Source of the DNA: an uncultured Verrucomicrobiota bacterium
Lineage (GTDB): Bacteria; Verrucomicrobiota; Verrucomicrobiia; Palsa-1439
NCBI GenBank assembly: GCA_903847335.1
Contig: CAINDI010000069.1
Span: 1,677-65,676 of the forward strand
Length of the DNA stretch: 64,000 bases
Direction of reading: 5' to 3'
The position numbers were made by a program, and so were the translations under genes. Under the pieces are notes generated by a model. The model did not search any database, was not told the DNA's origin, and saw only the letters and a list, made by a program, of their open reading frames with translations. This document shows, piece after piece, positions 40,733 through 57,642 of the stretch (the first letter of the stretch is position 1; each line of letters opens with the position of its first letter).

Positions 40733-40809
40733 CGGGACGTAGCGAAGTTTGGTATCGCGTCTGCTTTGGGAGCAGAAGATCCCGGGTTCAAATCCCGGCG
40801 TCCCGACCA
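40733..40809 (+). tRNA. tRNA-Pro (anticodon TGG)
   Basis: manual cloverleaf: acceptor CGGGACG/CGTCCCG, D-stem GCGA/TCGC, anticodon stem TCTGC/GCAGA with loop TTTGGGA (anticodon TGG), T-arm CCGGG-TTCAAAT-CCCGG, discriminator A, encoded CCA. Confidence 0.8.
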
Positions 40810-40812
40810 CTT

Positions 40813-42540
40813 TTACGGCAACGACAACTGCTCGATGTACCGGTCTTCAAAACCGGCGTCTAAATTCAACTCCACCACGTCCATCTTCTTAGCGGCGCGG
40901 GCAATTTCATCCAACGCACCGCAATCTAGCAACGCCAAATACGCGCCAGCCAAACTGGTGTTGCCGACCACTTCAATTTGCTCCGGTACAAATCCCGGCA
41001 ACAATCCACACGCAATTGCATTCTCGCGATCGAGGTGCAAACCAAATCCACCGGCAAGATAGAGTTTTTTAATCTGCGCGGGTTTCAACCCGGCGCGCTC
41101 CAACAACGTCAGAATACCGGCAGCAATCGCCGCCTTCGCCTGCATCAATCCAGCAATGTCCATTTCCGTCACCACGATATCAGTCTTACCGGAACCTGTC
41201 GCCACCCGCAACGCCCGGCCATAATCTTTCCACGGCATTGTCTGCTCCGTAAACGCATTCTCAAACCGCCCGCGCTCGTTCAGAAAACCGGTGGCGCGGC
41301 CTTCCGCTAGAAAATCCACATACGCCGTCCCGCACAAACCAATCGGCATCCCCTGCCCGATTTTTTCCAGCGCAACTGAAAATGGATTTGGATTCAATTT
41401 TATATGCGCAATCGCACCGGCGGTGGCGCGAACGCCGTTAGTCATCCCGGCGCCTTCAAACGCCGGACCCGCTGCCGTGGCGCAGCCGGAAAGATTGTTG
41501 CCGCGCTTCAGGATGATTTCTCCATTCGTTCCGACATCCACCAACAACGCCGGACCTTCGTCGTACACCAAGCCGGTCGCGAATGCGCCGGCGGTTAAAT
41601 CCGCACCGACATACGCTGCGGCACTCGGTAAGAGATGAATTATGAACGACCAGCCGGGAATCGCTGCGAGCCGGTGCTCCAGAAATGTCGCTGTGAACGG
41701 CGCCAACCCCATCGACGACGGATCCACTCCGGCAAACAAATGCAACATGGTTGTGTTCGCCGCCACCGTCATACACCGGACTTGCGCTAACGTTGCGCCA
41801 GCCTTGCTGAGTGCTTCATTGAGTAATGGTTTTAGCGTTTCCTCGACAATCAAATCTTGCAAATGCTTGAGTTGAGTCGGGTCGGTACTGCAAAGATTAA
41901 TCCGCGTCAGAACGTCGTCGCCGAGATGCATCTGCCGATTGAAGTTTGCCGCGCCGCCCAACACTTTGCCATCGCGTAAATCGCAAATGAGCAACGCCAC
42001 CGTCGTCGTGCCGATGTCCACCGCCACGCCGAGCGGTTGCGCCTCCGGTGTTGCGGAAACGCTAGTCACAAGCCAATGGTCGTCTCGGTATTCGAGCGTC
42101 GCAATCGCGTCCACCGGCAGGTTCGGCGTCACACGGACCGGTCGCCGGCGTTGAATACCAGCTACACCATTCGCCGGTACCGCAACCTGTTGCCAGAGCG
42201 GATCGTGAGCGCGCGGAACATTCGTTTTGAATTCGCTGACAACCTGCGGTTCGTACGCTAACAACGAGCGCGCCGGAATCCGCACGGTTACCGGACCGTC
42301 GTGTGCGAGCCGGTATTCGCAACCGCGCAAAGCTTGACCGGTACCGGTCACAGTTTCACCGGTCGCCATATTCGTGAGACTACCGGTGAGCAATTCAATA
42401 ATGCAACCATCACACAAACCGCGCTGACCACACCGGGTATTCAGTGGAAAATGTTTTCGCCGGAGCAAATCGCTCAAACGCTCGGCACCGGTGACGTTGA
42501 GAACTTGCGGACCTTTGGCAGTTTCGATGGTGAGATTCAT
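40813..42540 (-). CDS. RACo-like reductive activator of corrinoid proteins (N-terminal 2Fe-2S ferredoxin + ASKHA ATPase domain, DUF4445)
   Basis: 575 aa; plant-type ferredoxin motif CGQRGLCDGC; actin-like ATPase GVAVDIGTTTV and GGFG motifs; architecture of corrinoid activation proteins. Confidence 0.7.
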   Translation of the reverse strand: MNLTIETAKGPQVLNVTGAERLSDLLRRKHFPLNTRCGQRGLCDGCIIELLTGSLTNMATGETVTGTGQALRGCEYRLAHDGPVTVRIPARSLLAYEPQVVSEFKTNVPRAHDPLWQQVAVPANGVAGIQRRRPVRVTPNLPVDAIATLEYRDDHWLVTSVSATPEAQPLGVAVDIGTTTVALLICDLRDGKVLGGAANFNRQMHLGDDVLTRINLCSTDPTQLKHLQDLIVEETLKPLLNEALSKAGATLAQVRCMTVAANTTMLHLFAGVDPSSMGLAPFTATFLEHRLAAIPGWSFIIHLLPSAAAYVGADLTAGAFATGLVYDEGPALLVDVGTNGEIILKRGNNLSGCATAAGPAFEGAGMTNGVRATAGAIAHIKLNPNPFSVALEKIGQGMPIGLCGTAYVDFLAEGRATGFLNERGRFENAFTEQTMPWKDYGRALRVATGSGKTDIVVTEMDIAGLMQAKAAIAAGILTLLERAGLKPAQIKKLYLAGGFGLHLDRENAIACGLLPGFVPEQIEVVGNTSLAGAYLALLDCGALDEIARAAKKMDVVELNLDAGFEDRYIEQLSLP

Positions 42541-43259
42541 GGCACGAGTTCAATCACGCGTTCGTCGGCGACCAGCCGGAAAGTTTGCCCGGGAGGGACG
42601 ACAAGAAACCGGTCATTATCCCACGGACCGGAGAGCAATGCTTTCAGTAGAGATGGATCGCCAGCTTGGCAATCGCATTTCCAGCCGAGCCAATCCGCGC
42701 ATTTTTTGGTGTAGGCGTGTTGCTGCTCAACGTCACCGGTGTCGAGGTGCACAAACGCGGCGTTATCGTATTTTTTGAACCAAGCCTGTTCAGTCTCCAT
42801 CAAAAAATCGGCATTGTCCTCGCCGTATTTTTCGACGTACTCGCCCCGGGTTTGCTCATACCGTTCCTTGCCGGGTGGGGCGTGATGTTTATTCCAGCCG
42901 ATGCTGTACCAGTAGGTCCCGGGATTTTGCTTCACGTATTCCGCGTAGCGTTCTTTACTGCCGAGTAGATGCGTGATGCAATCGTGTGCGCGGGCGATAA
43001 CGAGTCGGCACCGATTTGTTTTCACGCCTTCGGTACCGCGACTGCACAAGCCGTAACCGAGAACGATAACTTCGGCATTCGTCTCCACCTCGACCCGGTT
43101 AATGGCGGCCTGAACGGTGGTTCGTAGTTTATCCGGCTCTCGGTGTAAAGCCCACTCGAGTTTCTCGATTCGAACGATGTGCGTCAAATCGGTCGCGAAA
43201 TGCGCGATTTCCGTTTCGAGGACGGCGCAGGTGATGACAGCGACACGCGGTGTATTCAT
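42537..43259 (-). CDS. DUF1638 domain protein (accessory protein of corrinoid methyltransferase loci)
   Basis: 240 aa; overlaps RACo start; my recollection is that the DUF1638 family co-occurs with corrinoid protein/methyltransferase genes. Confidence 0.55.
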   Translation of the reverse strand: MNTPRVAVITCAVLETEIAHFATDLTHIVRIEKLEWALHREPDKLRTTVQAAINRVEVETNAEVIVLGYGLCSRGTEGVKTNRCRLVIARAHDCITHLLGSKERYAEYVKQNPGTYWYSIGWNKHHAPPGKERYEQTRGEYVEKYGEDNADFLMETEQAWFKKYDNAAFVHLDTGDVEQQHAYTKKCADWLGWKCDCQAGDPSLLKALLSGPWDNDRFLVVPPGQTFRLVADERVIELVP

Positions 43260-43271
43260 GAGCGCAATAAT

Positions 43272-44165
43272 TTAGCGACCAATCTCCGGTATGTCCAGAC
43301 TCGGAATCTGGAGATGTTGGATGACGGGATTACCGGTGATGAGAAACCCGGATTGCATCGAGGCCCGGTAATCACGCGGCGAAAGCCCATACACTTTGTG
43401 GAACTTGTTCGAGAAATGATAGGGCGAGGCAAAACCGACGATGTCGGCAATTTGGCGAATCCGCAAATTGCTCCGGAGCAGCAACGACGCGGCGCGTTCC
43501 AGTCGGGCGAGACCCGCGCATTCCAGCGGACCGAGATCGAGATGGCGGCGAAATAGCCGGCAGAGATATTCCGGTGAGACGTGCGCGGCTTTCGCCAACG
43601 CGGTTAAGGTAATCGGCAACGGCGGGTCGTGCGCAAGAGCTTGCCGGATTGAACGGAGTGTTTTTTGGACAGCCGGCGGCAGATTTTCCAGCGGTTCCAA
43701 GGCGATGGCGGTTTGATTATCGAGAAATCCGCGCAGCATTAGAGTGACCGCCGCTTCGAGTAGTGGAGTGTGAATCGGTTTCTGATTTTGAGCCATACCG
43801 ATGACGTACCGGAACATCGGGCGTAAAATATCTTCCGGTGTCATGGTTCGGTTCAGCGGCCATTCGTTTAACGGCGGCCAGCCGGGGTCGGAGTAGTCGA
43901 AGCTAAAGTGAAAAAATGCCTGCATTGTCCGACGCGTCGAATCCCAATCGTACCGGTCAGTCATGCCGGGGCGTCCCAAAAGAACGGTACCGGCAGGGGC
44001 ATCGATATTCCGGCCATCGAAACTTGCTTTGGCGTGGCCGTCAATAATCCAGACGAATTCAAAGTCATGCAGTAAGCGCGGCCCAAAAGTCGCCCCCGGA
44101 GGATAGACGGAAATCCCGGCGTTGCCAACGAGCAGGCCTTCTGTGGTGGTAAAAGCCATGGTCAA
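43272..44165 (-). CDS. AraC-family transcriptional regulator
   Basis: C-terminal double HTH (YLCRLFRRHL...IADIVGFASPYHFSNKFHKVYGLSPRDYR); N-terminal cupin-like sensing domain. Confidence 0.75.
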   Translation of the reverse strand: MTMAFTTTEGLLVGNAGISVYPPGATFGPRLLHDFEFVWIIDGHAKASFDGRNIDAPAGTVLLGRPGMTDRYDWDSTRRTMQAFFHFSFDYSDPGWPPLNEWPLNRTMTPEDILRPMFRYVIGMAQNQKPIHTPLLEAAVTLMLRGFLDNQTAIALEPLENLPPAVQKTLRSIRQALAHDPPLPITLTALAKAAHVSPEYLCRLFRRHLDLGPLECAGLARLERAASLLLRSNLRIRQIADIVGFASPYHFSNKFHKVYGLSPRDYRASMQSGFLITGNPVIQHLQIPSLDIPEIGR

Positions 44166-44297
44166 TTACCGGTAGGTTTCCGTAATTTTAAGATATTGTC
44201 AAGAATGCAAGCTTCTGGTAATTCTGACGACAGTTGCAACAGGCCGGTGTTTCATCATGGTCAATTCACGGCAGGCGCAACCATAAAAGGAAATCAA

Positions 44298-44930
44298 ATG
44301 AGCGAACTACAGAAACTGTCCGAGTCCGTAGAAAAAGGTAATCGTAACGAAGCCAAGCGGATTACGAATGAACTCCTCGCCGCCGGTATGAAACCACTCG
44401 ACGTCGTCGAACAAGGTCTCGTCCCCGGCATGAACACCATTGGCGAAAAGTTTAAGAACAACCAGATTTTTGTCCCCGAAATGCTCATCGCCGCCCGCGC
44501 TATGAAAGAAGCGATGGCGATTCTCGAACCACTTCTCGTTAAAGCCGGCATCAAGCCTGCGTTTACTGCCGTCATCGGCACTGTGCAAGGCGATCTCCAT
44601 GACATCGGCAAGAATCTTGTCGCCATGATGTGGAAAGGTGCAAACTTCGGTGTCGTTGACCTCGGAACGAATGTAACGCCAGAAAAATTTGTCGCGGCTG
44701 CCAAAGAACATAACGCTCAGGTTATCGGTCTCTCCGCGTTGTTGACCACCACAATGCCGGCAATGAAGACCACAATTGCCGCCGTCAAAGCGGCGGGCCT
44801 CACCGGTGTTAAAATCGTCATCGGTGGCGCGCCAATCACCAGCGAGTTCGCCAAAGAAATCGGTGCTGACGCTTTTGCACCCGACGCCGCCAGCGCGGTG
44901 GATGTCGTCCGAAATCTTATTGCGGCGTAA
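44298..44930 (+). CDS. cobalamin-binding corrinoid protein (MtaC/MtbC/MetH-B12-domain-like)
   Basis: start at MSELQKL (good AAGGA SD); B12-binding-cap helix bundle, then Rossmann domain with DxHxxG (GDLHDIGKN) and GG motif. Confidence 0.8.
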   Translation: MSELQKLSESVEKGNRNEAKRITNELLAAGMKPLDVVEQGLVPGMNTIGEKFKNNQIFVPEMLIAARAMKEAMAILEPLLVKAGIKPAFTAVIGTVQGDLHDIGKNLVAMMWKGANFGVVDLGTNVTPEKFVAAAKEHNAQVIGLSALLTTTMPAMKTTIAAVKAAGLTGVKIVIGGAPITSEFAKEIGADAFAPDAASAVDVVRNLIAA

Positions 44931-44943
44931 ATTCGACAATAAC

Positions 44944-45780
44944 CTATTGAAAGTCGCGCCGGTAAGCAGCAGGCGAGCGTCCCATTGTCTTTTTGAAGAC
45001 TCGGTAGAATTGTGGGTAGCTCCCAAAACCGGCCTCCAGTGCTGCCGTGAGCATTTTCATCCGCTGACCGGTTCCGTAGAGTTGTAAAAAACGCTCGATC
45101 CGCTGCCGGTTGCGAAAGTCGAGTAAAGTCACGCCAGTCTGTTGCTTGAATAAATGGCTTAACCGGGAAGGACTCAGACCGGCCTGGTGCGCCAGTTCTT
45201 CAATGGACAGCGCTGCGCCAGCGTCACGAATCAAGTAGGTTGCCTTTTCCACAGCCGGATGGACATCGCTACCAGTTAAATTATCACCGGTGGTGATAAA
45301 TTTTTCCCAAGTTAATAAAAGCGCGTAGGCCAAACCAGTGTTAAAAAGACTGTCTTGATTCCGGGCGGCTTCAATTTCTTCGTATACCAATTCAAGGCGA
45401 TTGAATGTCGCCGCTGTTAAACGACGATTGCATTGACCATCGGGATTGGTTTCGCGCAAGGTTTGGGCGTTCGTGTCACAAACGATTCGATCAATAAGTT
45501 GCGGTTTGAAAACACCAATCCACATTTTGAAATCCGGCGATTGATCGATCAACACATGTTCCTGTGCCGGAAAAAGCCAGAGTAAATCACCCCGGCGAAT
45601 TTGGTATTTACGCTTCGCTAAAAGATAGCAAGCCGTACCTTGTGTGATCAGATTAAATTCCAGTTCGGCATGATGATGCATGGGCACAACGCGCCCTTGA
45701 TTCTGATACAACCAGAGATTCCCATCGTGGTTATCTGGCAGGTTTAACCGTGATTTCATAACAGCTGCAAATGATAACAC
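44944..45780 (-). CDS. AraC-family transcriptional regulator (second copy)
   Basis: C-terminal AraC HTH (LAHQAGLSPSRLSHLFKQ...GFGSYPQFYRVFKKTMGRSPAAYRR); cupin-like N-terminal domain. Confidence 0.75.
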   Translation of the reverse strand: MLSFAAVMKSRLNLPDNHDGNLWLYQNQGRVVPMHHHAELEFNLITQGTACYLLAKRKYQIRRGDLLWLFPAQEHVLIDQSPDFKMWIGVFKPQLIDRIVCDTNAQTLRETNPDGQCNRRLTAATFNRLELVYEEIEAARNQDSLFNTGLAYALLLTWEKFITTGDNLTGSDVHPAVEKATYLIRDAGAALSIEELAHQAGLSPSRLSHLFKQQTGVTLLDFRNRQRIERFLQLYGTGQRMKMLTAALEAGFGSYPQFYRVFKKTMGRSPAAYRRDFQ

Positions 45781-45833
45781 GTCGCCTGAAAATGAGAAGT
45801 CGCCGCAATAGTTATCTGTTAGAATTTTAACTC

Positions 45834-46631
45834 ATGAATATTATTACCGAAGCTCATCGTGAATTGTACCAGAAAGAAGGCTACATGATTTTGCCGGGGG
45901 TAATCCCGCCAAATCTATTAAAAATGTTACGAGAGGAATGTTCGTATTTCCTCGGATATTACGATTCCCAAATGGATGCACGCCGTGTGCAAGTGGACGG
46001 CATCAACCACCGTGGAAAGCGCTATTTCATCAACAATCGTTATCGTCTAAGCAACCGGCTGTGGGAGTTTATTTTCAGTCCGCTAATGGCCGAGATCGCC
46101 CAAGCCGCACTCGGTCCAGATGTATATTTATTTCACGAACAATGGGTCGTTAAAGGCGCAGAGCAAGGGATGAAATTCGCTTGGCATCAGGATAGTGGGT
46201 ACGTGAAATACGGCGATCCGCAAACCAAGCACAAACCGTACGTCACTTGCTGGTGCACACTCGACGATGTGAATGAAGCCAACGGTACCGTTTATCTTTT
46301 ACCGCACTCACGCGGAGGCACAAAGAACACAATTTTTGATCACACCAAACAAGCCGGTACAAACGATCTGATTGGCTATACCGGAAATGATCCCGGCGAT
46401 CCGCTCCTTGTGCCCGCTGGTAGCATTGTGGCATTTACTAGCTACAACTTCCATCGAAGCGGTGCCAACACCACCAATCGGATGCGGCGCGTTTACCTCC
46501 CACAATACAGCTCCGAACCGATCACTCGCGCCACCGGAGAGTTTTGGCAACTCGCGACACCCTTCGTTAAAGACAATCAAATTATCTACAACCGCGCGAA
46601 TGATACCGCCGAGAACTACGGACCAAAATGA
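45834..46631 (+). CDS. phytanoyl-CoA dioxygenase (PhyH) family Fe(II)/2-oxoglutarate oxygenase
   Basis: 265 aa; HxD facial-triad motif (FAWHQDSGY) and a distal His near the C-terminus. Confidence 0.7.
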   Translation: MNIITEAHRELYQKEGYMILPGVIPPNLLKMLREECSYFLGYYDSQMDARRVQVDGINHRGKRYFINNRYRLSNRLWEFIFSPLMAEIAQAALGPDVYLFHEQWVVKGAEQGMKFAWHQDSGYVKYGDPQTKHKPYVTCWCTLDDVNEANGTVYLLPHSRGGTKNTIFDHTKQAGTNDLIGYTGNDPGDPLLVPAGSIVAFTSYNFHRSGANTTNRMRRVYLPQYSSEPITRATGEFWQLATPFVKDNQIIYNRANDTAENYGPK

Positions 46632-47716
46632 ACGACACACTCCAATGGAAGTCAGATTGGCTACAAGCTCGACAAGCACTGACCGCATGGTGGGAACATC
46701 GCGGTTTGGCGTTGCACATCACCGCGCCGAAAAATCCGCCGTGGGAAAATATTCCCCACCCTGGTAAACCGCGTGATCTCCAGCAGCAATGGACTGACTT
46801 AGATTATTGGGTCGCGACTTACGAACACGAAATGGCGCATACATTTTATGGTGGCGTCTCCTTTCCACGTTTATGGACGCTTGTCGGTGGTCCCGGCAGT
46901 CTCGGTTTATTCCTTGGCGCAAACGGCGTGCTTTCGCCTTCCACCGTGTGGTACGACCCGGTGATTCATGAGCCAGAATCATATCCACCATTCCGGCTCG
47001 ATAAATCCGGCACTTGGTGGCGGCGGCATATGGATGTCATTGAACTCAGCCAGCACCGGTCGCGCGGTCGGTATCTAGTCGGGTTTCCGGATATTGTTGA
47101 GAACATTGATACACTCGCGCAATTACGCGACGGCCAATTGTTGTTGATGGATTTACTGGAGCGACCGGACTGGGTGAAATCCAGGCTCACGGAAATCAAC
47201 GCCGCATTTTTTGAATGTTACGAAGATTTTTGGCAACGCTTACGCGATCCGTGGGGTGGTTCAACTTTCTGCGCGTTTGATCTCTGGGGCCCTGGTAAAA
47301 CCTGCAAAATTCAATGCGATTTCTCCTGCATGATTTCAACTGATATGTTTCAGGAGTTCGTCGTACCTGGACTGACAGAACAATGCGAACGGCTGGATTA
47401 CGTGATGTACCATCTTGACGGAACAAACGCCGTCCATCAACTCGATGCTTTACTCGAAATTGAAGCGCTGGCCGCCATCGAATGGACGCCTCAATCCGGT
47501 CTTCCCGGTGGCGGTTCACCACAATGGTATGACATGTACCGGCGCATCAAAGCCGCCGGTAAGAGCGTCCAAGCTGTCGGCGTGAAACCGGAAGAAATCG
47601 CGCCGCTCATTGACGCGGTTGGCGCGGATGGTTTGTATGTTTTGACCACCGGCACCTCGACAGAGGCAGAAGCGCGCGCCCTACTCCATCGTTTTGGCTG
47701 GCAAGGCGACGCCTGA
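46628..47716 (+). CDS. URO-D/MtaA-superfamily TIM-barrel protein, putative corrinoid-dependent methyltransferase (atypical)
   Basis: 362 aa; the C-terminal half resembles uroporphyrinogen decarboxylase / MtaA: AFDLWGPG versus IFDTWGG, and VMYHLDGTNAVHQLDALLEIEAL versus ILHICGDTTPILEDMADTGADAL; the Zn-ligand Cys of HxCG is replaced by Asp. This is an alignment by eye, not a computed one. Confidence 0.4.
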   Translation: MNDTLQWKSDWLQARQALTAWWEHRGLALHITAPKNPPWENIPHPGKPRDLQQQWTDLDYWVATYEHEMAHTFYGGVSFPRLWTLVGGPGSLGLFLGANGVLSPSTVWYDPVIHEPESYPPFRLDKSGTWWRRHMDVIELSQHRSRGRYLVGFPDIVENIDTLAQLRDGQLLLMDLLERPDWVKSRLTEINAAFFECYEDFWQRLRDPWGGSTFCAFDLWGPGKTCKIQCDFSCMISTDMFQEFVVPGLTEQCERLDYVMYHLDGTNAVHQLDALLEIEALAAIEWTPQSGLPGGGSPQWYDMYRRIKAAGKSVQAVGVKPEEIAPLIDAVGADGLYVLTTGTSTEAEARALLHRFGWQGDA

Positions 47717-47734
47717 TTCATATACCTTTCCAGC

Positions 47735-48598
47735 ATGCATCCGGTAATCAAACAACTTCTTGCCACCGGTTCTGTCATTACCGACGGAGCTTGGGGTACT
47801 CAACTTCAAGCTCGCGGTTTACCGGTCGGCGCTTGTCCCGATGAATGGAATCTCACTCAACCCGGTAAGGTTGAAGAAGTCGCCGCCGCCTACGTTGCCG
47901 CCGGTAGCCGTATTATTTTGACCAATACATTTGGCGCCAACCGGATTCGCCTTGCTGAATTTAATCTAGCTGACAAAGTCGCGGAAATTAACCGGCGCGG
48001 TGCGGCGATTTCTAAAAAAGCCGCCGGTAATAAAGCGCTCGTTTTTGCATCCGTTGGACCCACCGGCAAAATGCTCGTCGCCGGCGACGTGACCGAAGAC
48101 GAATTGCGCGTCGCATTTACCGAGCAAGCACAAGCTCTCAAAGCCGGCGGTGCTGATGCGCTCGTCATCGAAACGATGGCCGAACTCGAAGAAGCGCAAA
48201 TCGCTCTCGACGCCGCGAAAAGCACCGGCCTGCCGGTCGTTGTCTGCATGACTTTCGATACCGGTGGCCGCACGATGATGGGCGTTGCTCCCGACCAAGC
48301 CGCCAAGCAATTTACCTCTGCCGGCGCGGATGTCATCGGCAGCAACTGCGGCAACGGCATTGCCGCCTTTATCCCGATTTGCCGCGAACTACGCACCGCG
48401 ACTGACTTGCCAATCTGGATTAAAGCCAATGCCGGCCAACCAGAATATGTGGACGGTAAAGTTATCTACCGGATTACACCGGAAGAATTTGCCGGACATG
48501 TTCCCGCCTTGCGTGCCGCCGGCGCAAATTTCATCGGTGGTTGTTGCGGCACCTCACCGGAACACCTTCGCGTTGTGGTTCAGCAGTTAACTCGTTGA
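47735..48598 (+). CDS. homocysteine S-methyltransferase-domain protein (Pfam S-methyl_trans, MetH N-terminal-domain-like)
   Basis: 287 aa; TDGAWGTQLQ start, NTFGAN, and Zn-binding GGCCGTSPEH motif characteristic of Hcy-binding methyltransferases. Confidence 0.7.
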   Translation: MHPVIKQLLATGSVITDGAWGTQLQARGLPVGACPDEWNLTQPGKVEEVAAAYVAAGSRIILTNTFGANRIRLAEFNLADKVAEINRRGAAISKKAAGNKALVFASVGPTGKMLVAGDVTEDELRVAFTEQAQALKAGGADALVIETMAELEEAQIALDAAKSTGLPVVVCMTFDTGGRTMMGVAPDQAAKQFTSAGADVIGSNCGNGIAAFIPICRELRTATDLPIWIKANAGQPEYVDGKVIYRITPEEFAGHVPALRAAGANFIGGCCGTSPEHLRVVVQQLTR

Positions 48599-55060: not shown

Positions 55061-55579
55061 ATGAGCGATCAACTAAAAAATGCTATCCGCGATGTGCCGG
55101 ACTTTCCAATCAAAGGTATCCTTTTCAAGGACATCACCCCGATTCTCCAAGACCCGAAACTTTTTCGTCTTGCCGTGGATACTCTCGCCGACCGGCATGC
55201 AGGGAAAAATCTGAAAGCTGTCGTAGGAATTGATGCGCGTGGATTTATCTTTGCTGGAGCTGTCGCCTACAAACTCGGCATCGGTTTTATTCCAGTGCGC
55301 AAAAAAGGCAAGTTGCCGTGGAAAACCGTTGTCACCAGTTACACGCTTGAATATGGCAGCGAAACCAGCGAAATGCACATCGACGCGCTCGCCAAAGGCG
55401 ACAATGTCGTCATTGTAGATGATTTACTCGCCACCGGTGGCACGGCGATGGCAGCCGCAACGCTCGTCAATAATCTCGGCGGGAAGATTGTCGAGATTGA
55501 TTTTCTCATCGAACTCGCCTTCCTTAAAGGCCGGGAACGCCTGAAGGATTATCCCGTCTTTTCCGCCCTCGCCTACTGA
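55061..55579 (+). CDS. apt: adenine phosphoribosyltransferase
   Basis: 172 aa; PRPP-binding motif VVIVDDLLATGGT. Confidence 0.85.
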   Translation: MSDQLKNAIRDVPDFPIKGILFKDITPILQDPKLFRLAVDTLADRHAGKNLKAVVGIDARGFIFAGAVAYKLGIGFIPVRKKGKLPWKTVVTSYTLEYGSETSEMHIDALAKGDNVVIVDDLLATGGTAMAAATLVNNLGGKIVEIDFLIELAFLKGRERLKDYPVFSALAY

Positions 55580-57642
55580 GGTGGAAAGACCGCGGTGAGC
55601 GCCGCGCGAAGCGAAGTCTGCGTCAACGGTTTACTCAGAATGGTCCGGATATGCGGCGGTTTTTCACCGGTGGCTTTCATTAAGTCGCCGAATCCGGTCA
55701 TTAAGATTACCGGCAAATTGGGAATGGCTTTTGAAATTGCGGCAGCGAGTTGCTCTCCGTTCATCTCCGGCATCGCCTTGTCAGTAATCACCAAGTCAAA
55801 CAAACCAGCCGCAAGTTGCGCTAACGCCTCCGCGCCGTTCTCGGCGGTCACGACTTTGTGGTGATCGGCAAGCAACCACGCCTCGGCCACCGCGCACAAC
55901 AGCGGTTCGTCGTCCACCACCAACACACGGAGCGACCGGGACACAGTCGCGGCTGAGGACGGAATCGCCGGCAGGCTCTCCTCCGTCTGAATCGGCAAGC
56001 GAATCATCACCGTCGTGCCTTGACCGACTTCGCTTTCGATTTCCACCGTTCCGCCGTGCCGTTGTACAATGCCTTGCACCATCGACAACCCCAAACCGGT
56101 GCCCAGCGGACGTTTTGTCGTGAAGAACGGTTCCAAGCAGCGCCGGCGGACTTCCTCGGTCATGCCGCTCCCGGTATCGCGAACCCACAACTGCACAAAC
56201 TCATCCTCGAGCTGCGCGCCCAGTGTGATGGTTCCGCCCTCCGGCAGCGCATCCACCGCGTTAAAAATTAAATTCGTCAACACCTCACGAATCGCAAACT
56301 CTTCACCGGCGACAGATGGCACCGGCCGCAGCTCCGTCACCAAATGAATGGTGCGCCCTTCGGCTTGCGCCTGATCTTTCCAGCGCTGCTGCGTATGTTC
56401 AATCGCTTGCCGAATCAACTGATGGAGATCAACGCTCCGGTAATCCGTACCGGTGCCGTGCCGATGACCAAACTCACACATCTGACGGACCGTGTGGGCG
56501 GCATCGGTGCCGCTGGTGTTGATATGCTGGAGATATTTCCTCACCAGCGCGTGGTCGGCGAGTTTTTCCGGATGCTGCAATAGCAACTCGCTGAACCCAA
56601 TAATCGGCGACAACGCATTATTAAAATCGTGCGCAACTCCGGCGGCCATCTGGCCGAGCACGCGCAAGTTTTCATCCTGGACGACTTGCGCCTGCATTTC
56701 CTTCAACTCTTGCTCCGCCTGCTTGCTCGCCGTTATGTCGCGAGCGACGTGGACGCTACCAAGCAGCGAGCCATCCGTGTCGCGCACCGGTGTGCAGGTG
56801 ACAAAGAAATGTCCGCCGAACCGGTGTTCGAAAACTTCACAACCATGTTGCTGTTGGTCCGCCAATAGCTTGGTGTGCGGACAAAAATCAGGCGCACCCT
56901 CTAAACCGTGAACGCATTCATAACACTTCAGACCAACCGCTTCATTCGTCGTCACACCGAGCTTATCTGCAAAAGCGCGATTGGCGCGCAGAATTGTGTG
57001 ATTCCGGTCAATGATACTAATCAAGTCCGGTACGGCATCAAAGGTGCGCGCCCATTCATTCTTCTCGTACAACACTCGTTCGGCTGCCAGCTTGCTCACC
57101 GTGATATCGGTAACGGTGAGGCAAACCACCGGTGCGCCGGTCGCATCCGTCGTGCTGGTGGCGTGCACTTGCGCCCAAAAGAGCAAGTCCGCCTGTTTCA
57201 TCATTCGGAGATCGGCACACGCCGGTGGCGGTAATGTGCCAAAGTGCGCCGCCGTAATTTGTTTGCGATACAGATAGTAATGGTCGGCATCCTCGCTGTA
57301 GATGAACCGGGAAAACGGTTGCCCGATGAGCGGGTGCTTGGCCACGCCCAGCAGCGTGGCACCGGCGCAGTTGACTTCGGTAATCAAACCGCTTTTGTCG
57401 ATGGTGAAATAACCGACCGGCGCTAAATCATACAAATCAAAATACCGGGCCCGCACGGTATCCAGCTCCGCTTGAGTCCGGCGCAGCTCATCGTTCTGCA
57501 TCTCTAGCTCAATCTGGTGGACTTGCAATTCGTGCAGCAGCTCAGCGGCTTTCAGTTCCGACTTCGGCGGCGATTGCTTCAGGCGCACTTCCGCTTGCCG
57601 GCGCAATTCAGCGGCGTTACCGGACTTCGCTTGGTCACTCAT
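55573..57642 (-). CDS. hybrid sensor histidine kinase/response regulator with PAS domains
   Basis: 689 aa; coiled-coil, PAS repeats, HisKA (AHDFNNALSPIIGFSELL), HATPase_c (GSGMT...GTGLGL), C-terminal receiver (LRVLVVDDEPLL...MTG). Confidence 0.8.
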   Translation of the reverse strand: MSDQAKSGNAAELRRQAEVRLKQSPPKSELKAAELLHELQVHQIELEMQNDELRRTQAELDTVRARYFDLYDLAPVGYFTIDKSGLITEVNCAGATLLGVAKHPLIGQPFSRFIYSEDADHYYLYRKQITAAHFGTLPPPACADLRMMKQADLLFWAQVHATSTTDATGAPVVCLTVTDITVSKLAAERVLYEKNEWARTFDAVPDLISIIDRNHTILRANRAFADKLGVTTNEAVGLKCYECVHGLEGAPDFCPHTKLLADQQQHGCEVFEHRFGGHFFVTCTPVRDTDGSLLGSVHVARDITASKQAEQELKEMQAQVVQDENLRVLGQMAAGVAHDFNNALSPIIGFSELLLQHPEKLADHALVRKYLQHINTSGTDAAHTVRQMCEFGHRHGTGTDYRSVDLHQLIRQAIEHTQQRWKDQAQAEGRTIHLVTELRPVPSVAGEEFAIREVLTNLIFNAVDALPEGGTITLGAQLEDEFVQLWVRDTGSGMTEEVRRRCLEPFFTTKRPLGTGLGLSMVQGIVQRHGGTVEIESEVGQGTTVMIRLPIQTEESLPAIPSSAATVSRSLRVLVVDDEPLLCAVAEAWLLADHHKVVTAENGAEALAQLAAGLFDLVITDKAMPEMNGEQLAAAISKAIPNLPVILMTGFGDLMKATGEKPPHIRTILSKPLTQTSLRAALTAVFPPQ

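Follow-up and report, generated by a model that had tools for sequence, protein, structure and literature searches.

What does a protein do that is encoded among genes for corrinoid-dependent methyl transfer and is recognized by no sequence model? The question is raised by an open reading frame (ORF) of 362 codons, called here the target, in a stretch of 64,000 nucleotides from an uncultured Verrucomicrobiota bacterium (Palsa-1439; GCA_903847335.1, contig CAINDI010000069.1, positions 1,677-65,676), which is referred to as the window. An initial annotation, made by eye, had likened the protein to uroporphyrinogen decarboxylase (UroD; Pfam family URO-D, PF01208) and to the methyltransferase MtaA, and had noted that the zinc-ligand cysteine of the H-x-C-G motif appears to be replaced (H-L-D-G). 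The answer that we favor on balance is a substrate:corrinoid methyltransferase (MT1): using a hard-ligand site of His and Asp, the target would take the methyl group of an O-methyl donor and feed methionine synthesis. The target and the segments on which the argument turns are the following:

46628-47716, plus strand: the target, a divergent UroD-fold protein of 362 amino acids and predicted MT1 (ORF, AlphaFold2, Foldseek, hhalign, conservation)
47312-47320, plus strand: Q229-C230-D231, where the barrel strand before that of H262-L-D264-G265 has its C-terminal end (conservation, hhalign, model)
47411-47422, plus strand: H262-L-D264-G265, counterpart of the H-x-C-G zinc motif (hhalign, 4ay7 alignments, 99% conserved)
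47642-47662, plus strand: loop L339-T345 (LTTGTST) after the last barrel strand, site of the third zinc-ligand Cys of MtaA (alignments)

The target has no match at E<0.1 among the Pfam and NCBIfam models, PF01208 included (a sub-threshold match to CooT in these scans was dismissed). It passes none of the HemE/URO-D sequence models of the two databases, and its genomic context is unrelated to haem synthesis. Searches of the PDB sequences with the target (phmmer) and with a 36-sequence profile returned chance matches only (antibody fragments, formate dehydrogenase). A homolog search gave more than 1,300 proteins, all of which are named hypothetical; none of the 120 target homologs listed has a precomputed Pfam domain, and full-text searches of the literature found no description of the family.

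The fold is much clearer. The AlphaFold2 model, built on 36 homologs (mean predicted local distance difference test score 94.5, predicted template modelling score 0.91), contains eight strand-helix units and is a (β/α)8 barrel. The 15 best Foldseek matches in the PDB are all either MtaA of M. mazei (4ay7/4ay8) or uroporphyrinogen decarboxylases (E 6e-8 to 9e-6, probability 1.00, template modelling (TM) score 0.53-0.62, about 10% identity), while other folds appear at E≥1e-3 and TM≤0.35. The profile of the target family was also compared by hhalign with 20 paralogs from related gene clusters which are positive for the Pfam URO-D model: three runs gave probabilities of 98.2% (E 5e-14), 97.7% (E 2e-12) and, with a deeper family profile, 98.7% (E 4e-16, 287 columns). 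Because the best structural matches and the significant profile-profile alignment agree, the model and the profiles assign the target to the UroD superfamily, of which it is a member too divergent for PF01208, and the URO-D/MtaA-like fold proposed in the initial annotation is borne out.

The same annotation stated that the N-terminal 110 residues or so do not resemble URO-D. This holds for the sequence, in which no similarity is detectable, but not for the model, where these residues contribute the first two strands of the same barrel. The Foldseek alignments span 343-404 columns, and the N-terminal part of the target is predicted to belong to the UroD-type barrel, not to form a foreign domain.

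The motifs quoted in the initial annotation are present in the target (AFDLWGPG at residues 216-223, nucleotides 47273-47296; YHLDGT at residues 261-266). In all three hhalign runs, Y-H262-L-D264-G falls on the H-x-C/D-G column, with the His kept and the Cys exchanged for D264. The alignment made by eye was therefore correct, and the conserved cysteine is indeed replaced. The connection with MtaA goes through a reference paralog whose HLCG aligns with the HICG of 4ay7, and the paralog profile also aligns with MtaA directly. A Cys or His at the Cys position and a fold other than that of URO-D were both looked for, and neither was found.

The third zinc ligand of MtaA (the Cys of APGCG) falls on T340-T-G-T343 of the target, in a stretch which is variable in the family. 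Conservation was computed over 124 diverse family representatives, 27-53% identical to the target, and 33 of them have a Cys in this loop, typically as x-x-C-[GS]-T-E; the target clade has no ligand residue there. Because these 33 representatives carry the cysteine, the sequence comparison supports the descent of the target site from a zinc site, the third ligand having been lost in the target clade. The His-x-Cys...Cys zinc site of MtaA and MtbA is absent from the target (H262 is kept, followed by D264 and the T-T-G-T loop).

The residues conserved family-wide are W108, D161, Q229, D231, H262, D264, G265, W286 and K312. D231 is found in 100% of the representatives, H262, D264, G265 and W108 in 99%, D161 in 95%, K312 in 93% and Q229 in 92%. 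D231 is a candidate for an additional metal ligand or an acid catalyst. It also bears on the FDxWG motif which the initial annotation had read in the target: AFDLWGPG is there and can be matched without a gap to the UROD motif, but hhalign prefers D231 (in Q-C-D) as the counterpart of the strand-end Asp of the URO-D profile in two runs, and an insertion in the third. C230 and C253 were considered as replacement zinc ligands and are unlikely to be essential: both are invariant in close relatives, but they are conserved in only 82% and 54% of the representatives, and C230 is a Ser in 110 of 120 Bacteroidales fusion proteins (described below).

With H262, D264 and G265 each at 99% in the 124 representatives, the replacement is a trait of the family, and the description of the target as an atypical family member does not hold. 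H-x-D-G also occurs outside the family, in Pfam-positive paralogs: the 20 paralogs mentioned above have HxCG (7), HxDG (6) or DCDG (3) in this column. The three D-C-D-G paralogs are encoded at 15529-16620 of locus L002, 15592-16641 of L004 and 7632-8744 of L006 (the numbers designate loci with a family gene, and coordinates are those of the locus). Another URO-D paralog of L006 (5324-6433) has H-C-H-G, so that the ligand column is highly plastic inside single gene clusters. Conserved proteins of 384-419 amino acids without a Pfam match lie between the URO-D paralogs and the homocysteine S-methyltransferase gene (L002 12276-13535, L004 13281-14525, L006 8787-9941); that of L006 has an HLDG motif and scores with the hidden Markov model of the family, which indicates that further divergent branches of the superfamily exist.

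What does the replacement mean? In the UroD superfamily, S-methyltransferases have a His-Cys-Cys zinc site, while O-methyltransferases have Asp, Glu or non-coordinating residues in place of one Cys or of both (Kountz and Balskus, PMC10418091). The replacement of the Cys in H-x-C-G is thus already known and is ordinary for O-type enzymes. As in the UroD-type MT1 (PMC10418091), the cysteine ligands of the target are replaced by a carboxylate and by non-ligand residues. Zinc-free UroD-fold MT1 have been described (CdmB, M. thermoacetica O-demethylase), and zinc is present in the vanillate and veratrole enzymes (PMC13222342). Because of these published O-type enzymes, HLDG, by analogy, points to the donor-side, O-type branch (O-methyl donor, MT1 role) and not to a defective thiol methyltransferase of the MtaA type. 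In the superfamily, S-methyl chemistry goes with soft His-Cys-Cys sites and O-methyl chemistry with hard carboxylate sites; the target family extends this known pattern to a clade that sequence models do not recognize.

The target shares with OdmB, VdmB, MtvB and CdmB (PDB 9rui) the UroD-type barrel, the predicted role of a donor-specific MT1 working with a separate corrinoid protein, the presence of genes for a corrinoid protein and a RACo-type activase, and the many paralogs per genome. The loss of the zinc-ligand cysteines, or their replacement by carboxylates, is also common to them, some of the known members being zinc-free (PMC10418091, PMC13222342). Unlike them, the target matches neither PF01208 nor the sequence of any chain in the PDB, and CdmB is no exception: the profile of the target family misses 9rui in a PDB search, whereas that of the Pfam-positive paralogs reaches it. 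Compared with HemE/UROD, the fold is the same (TM up to 0.62) and the region of the strand-end Asp aligns, but H-L-D of the target corresponds to T-K-G in UROD, PF01208 is not matched, and haem synthesis has neither the corrinoid context nor the fusions of the target family.

The best structural match is MtaA (4ay7; Foldseek E 6e-8, TM 0.56-0.59), and the His of H-x-C-G is at the same strand end. MtaA is an MT2, and the target could likewise be an MT2, moving a methyl group from a methyl-corrinoid loaded by another protein to an acceptor (oxygen or another nucleophile). URO-D paralogs and MtaB-like proteins, present in many clusters, could then be the donor modules, and a fusion of Pterin_bind, B12-binding and target domains (see below) could run from methyltetrahydrofolate (CH3-H4folate) to the acceptor. 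We consider this quite unlikely. Compared with MtaA, MtbA and MtsA, the target is only about 10% identical, has an Asp instead of the Cys and lacks the third Cys, so that the thiol-activating His-Cys-Cys site of these MT2, which serve a thiol acceptor, is missing in what is predicted to be a donor-side MT1. The acceptor side is moreover already filled by the homocysteine S-methyltransferase of the window, and we know of no precedent for the methylation of a hydroxyl group from methyl-Co(III).

The target family is large. An exhaustive profile search found at least 2,721 clusters (50% identity) at the cut-off E≤1e-3, of which 846 are at E≤1e-30, in Verrucomicrobiota, Planctomycetota, Armatimonadota, Chloroflexota and Bacteroidales. 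The family (at least 2,700 clusters) is abundant in human-gut and rumen metagenomes. Because no Pfam or NCBIfam model exists for the family, its members are annotated as hypothetical or, in fusions, for their homocysteine methyltransferase part only. That such a large clade is invisible to Pfam is new.

In the window, the target belongs to a methyltransferase island (40813-48598) with the following genes:

40813-42540, minus strand: ATP-dependent reductive activase of the RACo/RamA type (PF14574 2e-71, PF17651 1e-40, NCBIfam AcsV model)
42537-43259, minus strand: DUF1638 protein (PF07796 1e-38)
43272-44165, minus strand: AraC-family regulator, divergent from the corrinoid protein gene (Pfam)
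44298-44930, plus strand: corrinoid protein with a B12-binding_2 cap and a B12-binding domain (Pfam PF02607/PF02310, NCBIfam)
44944-45780, minus strand: second AraC-family regulator, divergent from the operon of the dioxygenase, the target and the homocysteine S-methyltransferase (Pfam)
45834-46631, plus strand: Fe(II)/2-oxoglutarate dioxygenase of the PhyH family (PF05721 2e-23; best PDB matches EvdO2 and PhyH)
47735-48598, plus strand: protein with a homocysteine S-methyltransferase domain, predicted MT2 (PF02574 3e-67; NCBIfam MetH and BHMT models)

The corrinoid context assumed in the initial annotation is thus real: a corrinoid protein, a homocysteine S-methyltransferase, a RACo activase and a DUF1638 protein are encoded in the same island. 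The activase has a Cys-rich N-terminal motif, CGQRGLCDGC. The corrinoid protein has DxHxxG at residues 99-104; judging from the sequence, its start is likely Met35 of the listed ORF, which gives 210 amino acids, and corrinoid proteins of this length are found in the homologous clusters L002, L004 and L007. The homocysteine S-methyltransferase has the zinc triad Cys205/Cys270/Cys271. It forms a plus-strand operon with the PhyH dioxygenase and the target, whose ATG overlaps the stop of the PhyH gene as ATGA, indicative of translational coupling. The best solved relative of the dioxygenase is EvdO2 (E 1e-7), an oxygenase that modifies sugars in the biosynthesis of orthosomycins. On one side, the island borders on a complex I operon (nuo) and a PIG-L deacetylase gene; RecQ lies on the opposite side. 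A tRNA gene (40733-40806, plus strand) is found between the deacetylase and activase genes, at the left edge of the island. No cobalamin riboswitch or other Rfam element was found near the island, and the promoter and terminator scans of the island gave results no better than those of shuffled sequence.

Which protein loads the corrinoid? The only other methyltransferase of the window, the homocysteine S-methyltransferase, is of a type whose known chemistry takes the methyl group from methylcobalamin, which leaves the target, from the gene content, as the only candidate methyl-donor module of the island. We infer the following direction of methyl flow and use of a metal. The barrel would bind the O-methylated donor at the C-terminal face of its strands, where His262, Asp264, Asp231 and possibly Glu285 would form a hard-ligand site activating the ether oxygen as a leaving group; the putative site may hold Zn2+ or another divalent metal, or work by acid catalysis. 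The Co(I) form of the neighboring corrinoid protein would attack the methyl group, which the adjacent zinc-dependent homocysteine S-methyltransferase would pass to homocysteine (net: R-O-CH3 + homocysteine -> R-OH + methionine). The RACo and DUF1638 proteins would re-reduce oxidized Co(II), the two AraC regulators would make the system inducible, and the co-translated PhyH dioxygenase probably acts on the donor substrate or on the demethylated product.

The set of genes also calls methionine synthase to mind. The MetH-type parts PF02574, PF02607 and PF02310 are on separate genes in the window, and the target could be the CH3-H4folate-binding module of a split methionine synthase, a non-homologous substitute for the pterin domain, the island then being a housekeeping MetH. 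Pfam places URO-D and the methylfolate-binding MetE in one clan. No Pterin_bind (PF00809) gene was found among the eight island proteins, the ten flanking ORFs scanned or the related clusters inspected. In a common fusion protein of the family, the order of the MetH domains is kept, with the target domain where the pterin domain sits. The corrinoid protein, homocysteine S-methyltransferase, RamA-like activase and DUF1638 protein are the Phaeobacter inhibens set minus its pterin piece; in that organism, the DUF1638 and RamA-like proteins are genetically required for the function of the split enzyme (PMC5764234). We nevertheless find this explanation unlikely. One fusion carries Pterin_bind and the target domain together, which would be redundant. 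Several paralogs occur per locus or genome, and AraC regulation and conserved pairing with PhyH are unlike a housekeeping enzyme. Many members have genes for glycoside hydrolases and sugar regulators as neighbors but lack a corrinoid gene close by, and the Bacteroidales fusion is embedded in a module of GH141, GH31 and transporter genes.

The proposed MT1 system resembles MetH and its split forms in its homocysteine-binding zinc domain, B12 cap and B12-binding domain, as well as in the MetH-like order of the fused relatives, but it has a UroD-fold domain where the pterin-binding domain stands. As in the three-part MetH of P. inhibens, a RamA-like activase and a DUF1638 protein are there to reactivate the corrinoid (PMC5764234). 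In the MtgBCD system of Ruegeria pomeroyi, one corrinoid protein serves both a catabolic methyl donor and the synthesis of methionine (PMC12478193); the donor module of that system, unlike the one here, belongs to the MttB superfamily. Compared with the O-demethylase systems, the acceptor module of the target is a homocysteine S-methyltransferase instead of a pterin-binding MT2 that forms CH3-H4folate; this coupling, together with the MetH-like fusion in gut Bacteroidales, is new. The target family is also found in respiratory and aerobic lineages, with a PhyH partner and in a carbohydrate rather than an aromatic context.

Relatives are widespread. When species-representative genomes were scanned with a pattern, 562 stretches coding for one came up; the hosts of the best 80 of the 562 are Verrucomicrobiota, Planctomycetota, Lentisphaerota, Kiritimatiellae, Armatimonadota (including Chthonomonas calidirosea) and Anaerolineae. 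Neighbors were counted within 10 kb of the family gene in 89 loci: URO-D paralogs are present in 44 (up to 14 per locus), a corrinoid protein in 24, a homocysteine methyltransferase in 23, DUF1638 in 16, an MtaB-like gene in 15 and PhyH in 7. The order corrinoid protein, target, S-methyl_trans (PF02574) is found in L089, and with extra genes between the last two in L090 and L092. In L002, L004 and L005, the genes for a corrinoid protein, an MtaB-like protein and the target come first, and those for URO-D paralogs, S-methyl_trans and DUF1638 come after them; L006 has the same set in another order and without DUF1638. S-methyl_trans is the partner in the window and in every cluster inspected, and the association with a corrinoid protein and an ATP-dependent activase (44298-44930 and 40813-42540 in the window) recurs in L089, L090, L092, L002 and L004. 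Several family paralogs are present per genome or locus (L006, L011/L012, L044), which fits substrate-specific donor modules.

In the window and in six other loci, the gene directly upstream of the family member encodes PhyH. These six (L012, L016, L049, L053, L068 and L084) come from one member of the Verrucomicrobiia, three Planctomycetota, one member of the Capsulimonadaceae (Armatimonadota) and one unclassified bacterium. This conserved partner and the carbohydrate-related contexts of the family are new.

Two further kinds of neighborhood were observed. Around a family member, 10-14 URO-D-type ORFs are packed within about 20 kb in L013, L018 and L086 (Verrucomicrobiota) and L076 (Chloroflexia); for putative corrinoid methyltransferases, so dense an expansion is unusual outside acetogens and methanogens. 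The first three arrays also include a homocysteine S-methyltransferase gene. In Armatimonadota and related clusters, MtaB-like genes directly follow the corrinoid protein gene (L002 8441-9853, L004 8592-10001, L006 661-2058). Chthonomonas, with its aerobic isolates, is among the lineages with such genes.

A further link to corrinoids is given by fusions. In the protein P0151, the target domain is followed by S-methyl_trans, B12 cap and B12 domains; in P0156, found on three contigs, by the B12 cap and B12 domains; in P0203, a single case, it is preceded by Pterin_bind and B12 domains. The P0151 architecture is represented by at least 120 full-length clusters of about 1,000 amino acids, some with more than 1,000 member sequences. 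Such fusions are named "homocysteine S-methyltransferase family protein" by NCBI in Bacteroides and Prevotella. Between their N-terminal domain and the target the identity is 35% (E 1e-72), and D231, HLDG and WTP are retained in the domain. Fusions with B12 domains argue for direct methyl transfer to a corrinoid. They favor it over one of the possibilities put forward in the initial annotation, a decarboxylase-like enzyme acting on the methyl donor, for which no support was found. P0263 (GH106-like) was set aside as fusion evidence, as a singleton with a truncated target domain (profile positions 11-254), and the six-hairpin-like C-terminal region of P0260 has sub-threshold Pfam matches only. 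Another singleton, P0160 (549 amino acids), joins the family domain to a DUF362 domain.

The surroundings of the P0151-type fusion were counted in 82 gut and rumen loci (L093-L174; for example L093 10001-13036 and L094 10001-13021). A standalone MetH-type activation domain is found in 56 of them, a His-Cys-Cys URO-D protein in 54, GH31 in 51, a sodium:solute symporter (SSF family) in 47 and GH141 in 42. One Bacteroides locus also encodes a fucose isomerase, a mutarotase, a sugar kinase and a transketolase. The URO-D protein and the standalone Met_synt_B12 domain form a divergent pair near the module of fusion, GH141, GH31 and symporter; in L093 (17048-16038 and 15899-15174, both on the minus strand) the URO-D protein has the canonical His-Cys-Cys residues (HNCG ... 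SSGC) of MtaA-type thiol methyltransferases.

Which O-methyl compound would be the donor? The genomic context across the family suggests a methylated sugar. The founding GH141 enzyme is reportedly an α-L-fucosidase of the rhamnogalacturonan II system, and the linkage of the 2-O-methyl-xylose-fucose disaccharide is said not to be cleavable by B. thetaiotaomicron. This background makes 2-O-methyl sugars donor candidates for the Bacteroidales fusion subfamily. Tentatively, and at less than even chances, we propose that the family is the first corrinoid (B12)-dependent carbohydrate O-demethylase, which would strip methyl ethers from sugars without oxygen, the methyl group being kept in the form of methionine. 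In gut Prevotella and Bacteroides it would consist of one MetH-like polypeptide; in Verrucomicrobiota, Planctomycetota, Armatimonadota and Chloroflexota, several proteins would make up the system. Its substrates could be, for instance, 2-O-methyl-xylose and 2-O-methyl-fucose, both from rhamnogalacturonan II, or algal glycans that carry methyl groups.

The same mechanism could also serve a donor that is not a sugar, either a methoxylated aromatic compound, as for OdmB, VdmB and MtvB, or a small methyl compound such as methanol. The known UroD-type MT1 cited here act on aryl methyl ethers or on chloromethane (PMC10418091, PMC13222342), the carboxylate-substituted ligand pattern of O-type enzymes is the same, and an alkoxide leaves far less readily than a phenolate. 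Such a donor seems to us rather unlikely: genes for glycoside hydrolases, transport and isomerization of sugars, and LacI/AraC regulators prevail in the neighborhoods, the neighbors that were annotated include none for aromatic catabolism, and MtaB-like genes of the methanol type are separately present in many clusters.

Several facts weigh against the MT1 reading or its sugar version. An alkoxide is a poor leaving group, and the sole precedent that we know of is methanol (MtaB). The O2-dependent PhyH partner and the respiratory host (nuo operon) fit poorly with the O2-sensitive chemistry of Co(I); aerobic corrinoid methyltransferase systems are known (PMC12478193). In 34 of the 89 loci, neither a corrinoid-related gene nor another gene of the cluster families lies within 10 kb, so that some family members may work without a corrinoid, or their partners may be encoded elsewhere in the genome. 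The neighbors in these loci are often of the carbohydrate type (GH5, GH2, GtaA six-hairpin proteins, LacI regulators, GFO/IDH/MocA oxidoreductases), and GH30 and heparinase II/III genes stand beside complete clusters, but this context could in part reflect the richness of these phyla's genomes in carbohydrate-active enzymes.

These 34 loci also favor a last explanation, in which the target is a corrinoid-independent barrel enzyme acting on carbohydrates (decarboxylase, hydrolase or isomerase) and the B12 link is secondary. Similarly, the pair of PhyH and target is found without a corrinoid protein nearby in six loci, and His/Asp/Asp sites are common in metal-dependent hydrolases and isomerases. 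We give this very little credence, considering the B12-domain fusions in three architectures, one of them extremely abundant, the recurring gene order of corrinoid protein and target, and the fact that the sole detectable homologs are UroD-superfamily proteins, which in these clusters are mostly found alongside corrinoid proteins.

If the substrate class that we infer is right and the donor is a sugar, the system would have the same task as the cytochrome P450 carbohydrate demethylases, which remove the methyl group of 6-O-methyl-galactose in an oxygen-dependent reaction (PMC6292453). Methyl ethers on sugars block glycan catabolism, and this P450 route is the only carbohydrate demethylation found in the literature searched. 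The folds are unrelated, and the P450 reaction is oxidative and releases formaldehyde, whereas the target system would conserve the methyl group on the corrinoid. A B12-dependent route would, if true, explain how anaerobic bacteria of the gut and of sediments handle methylated sugars. It would also tie a new B12 requirement to the use of polysaccharides and connect methyl groups of the diet or of algae directly with methionine.

Outside the island, the window encodes an 886-amino-acid protein (57635-60295, minus strand) with CheB methylesterase, CheR methyltransferase and PAS domains, which adjoins a hybrid PAS histidine kinase/response regulator (55573-57642).

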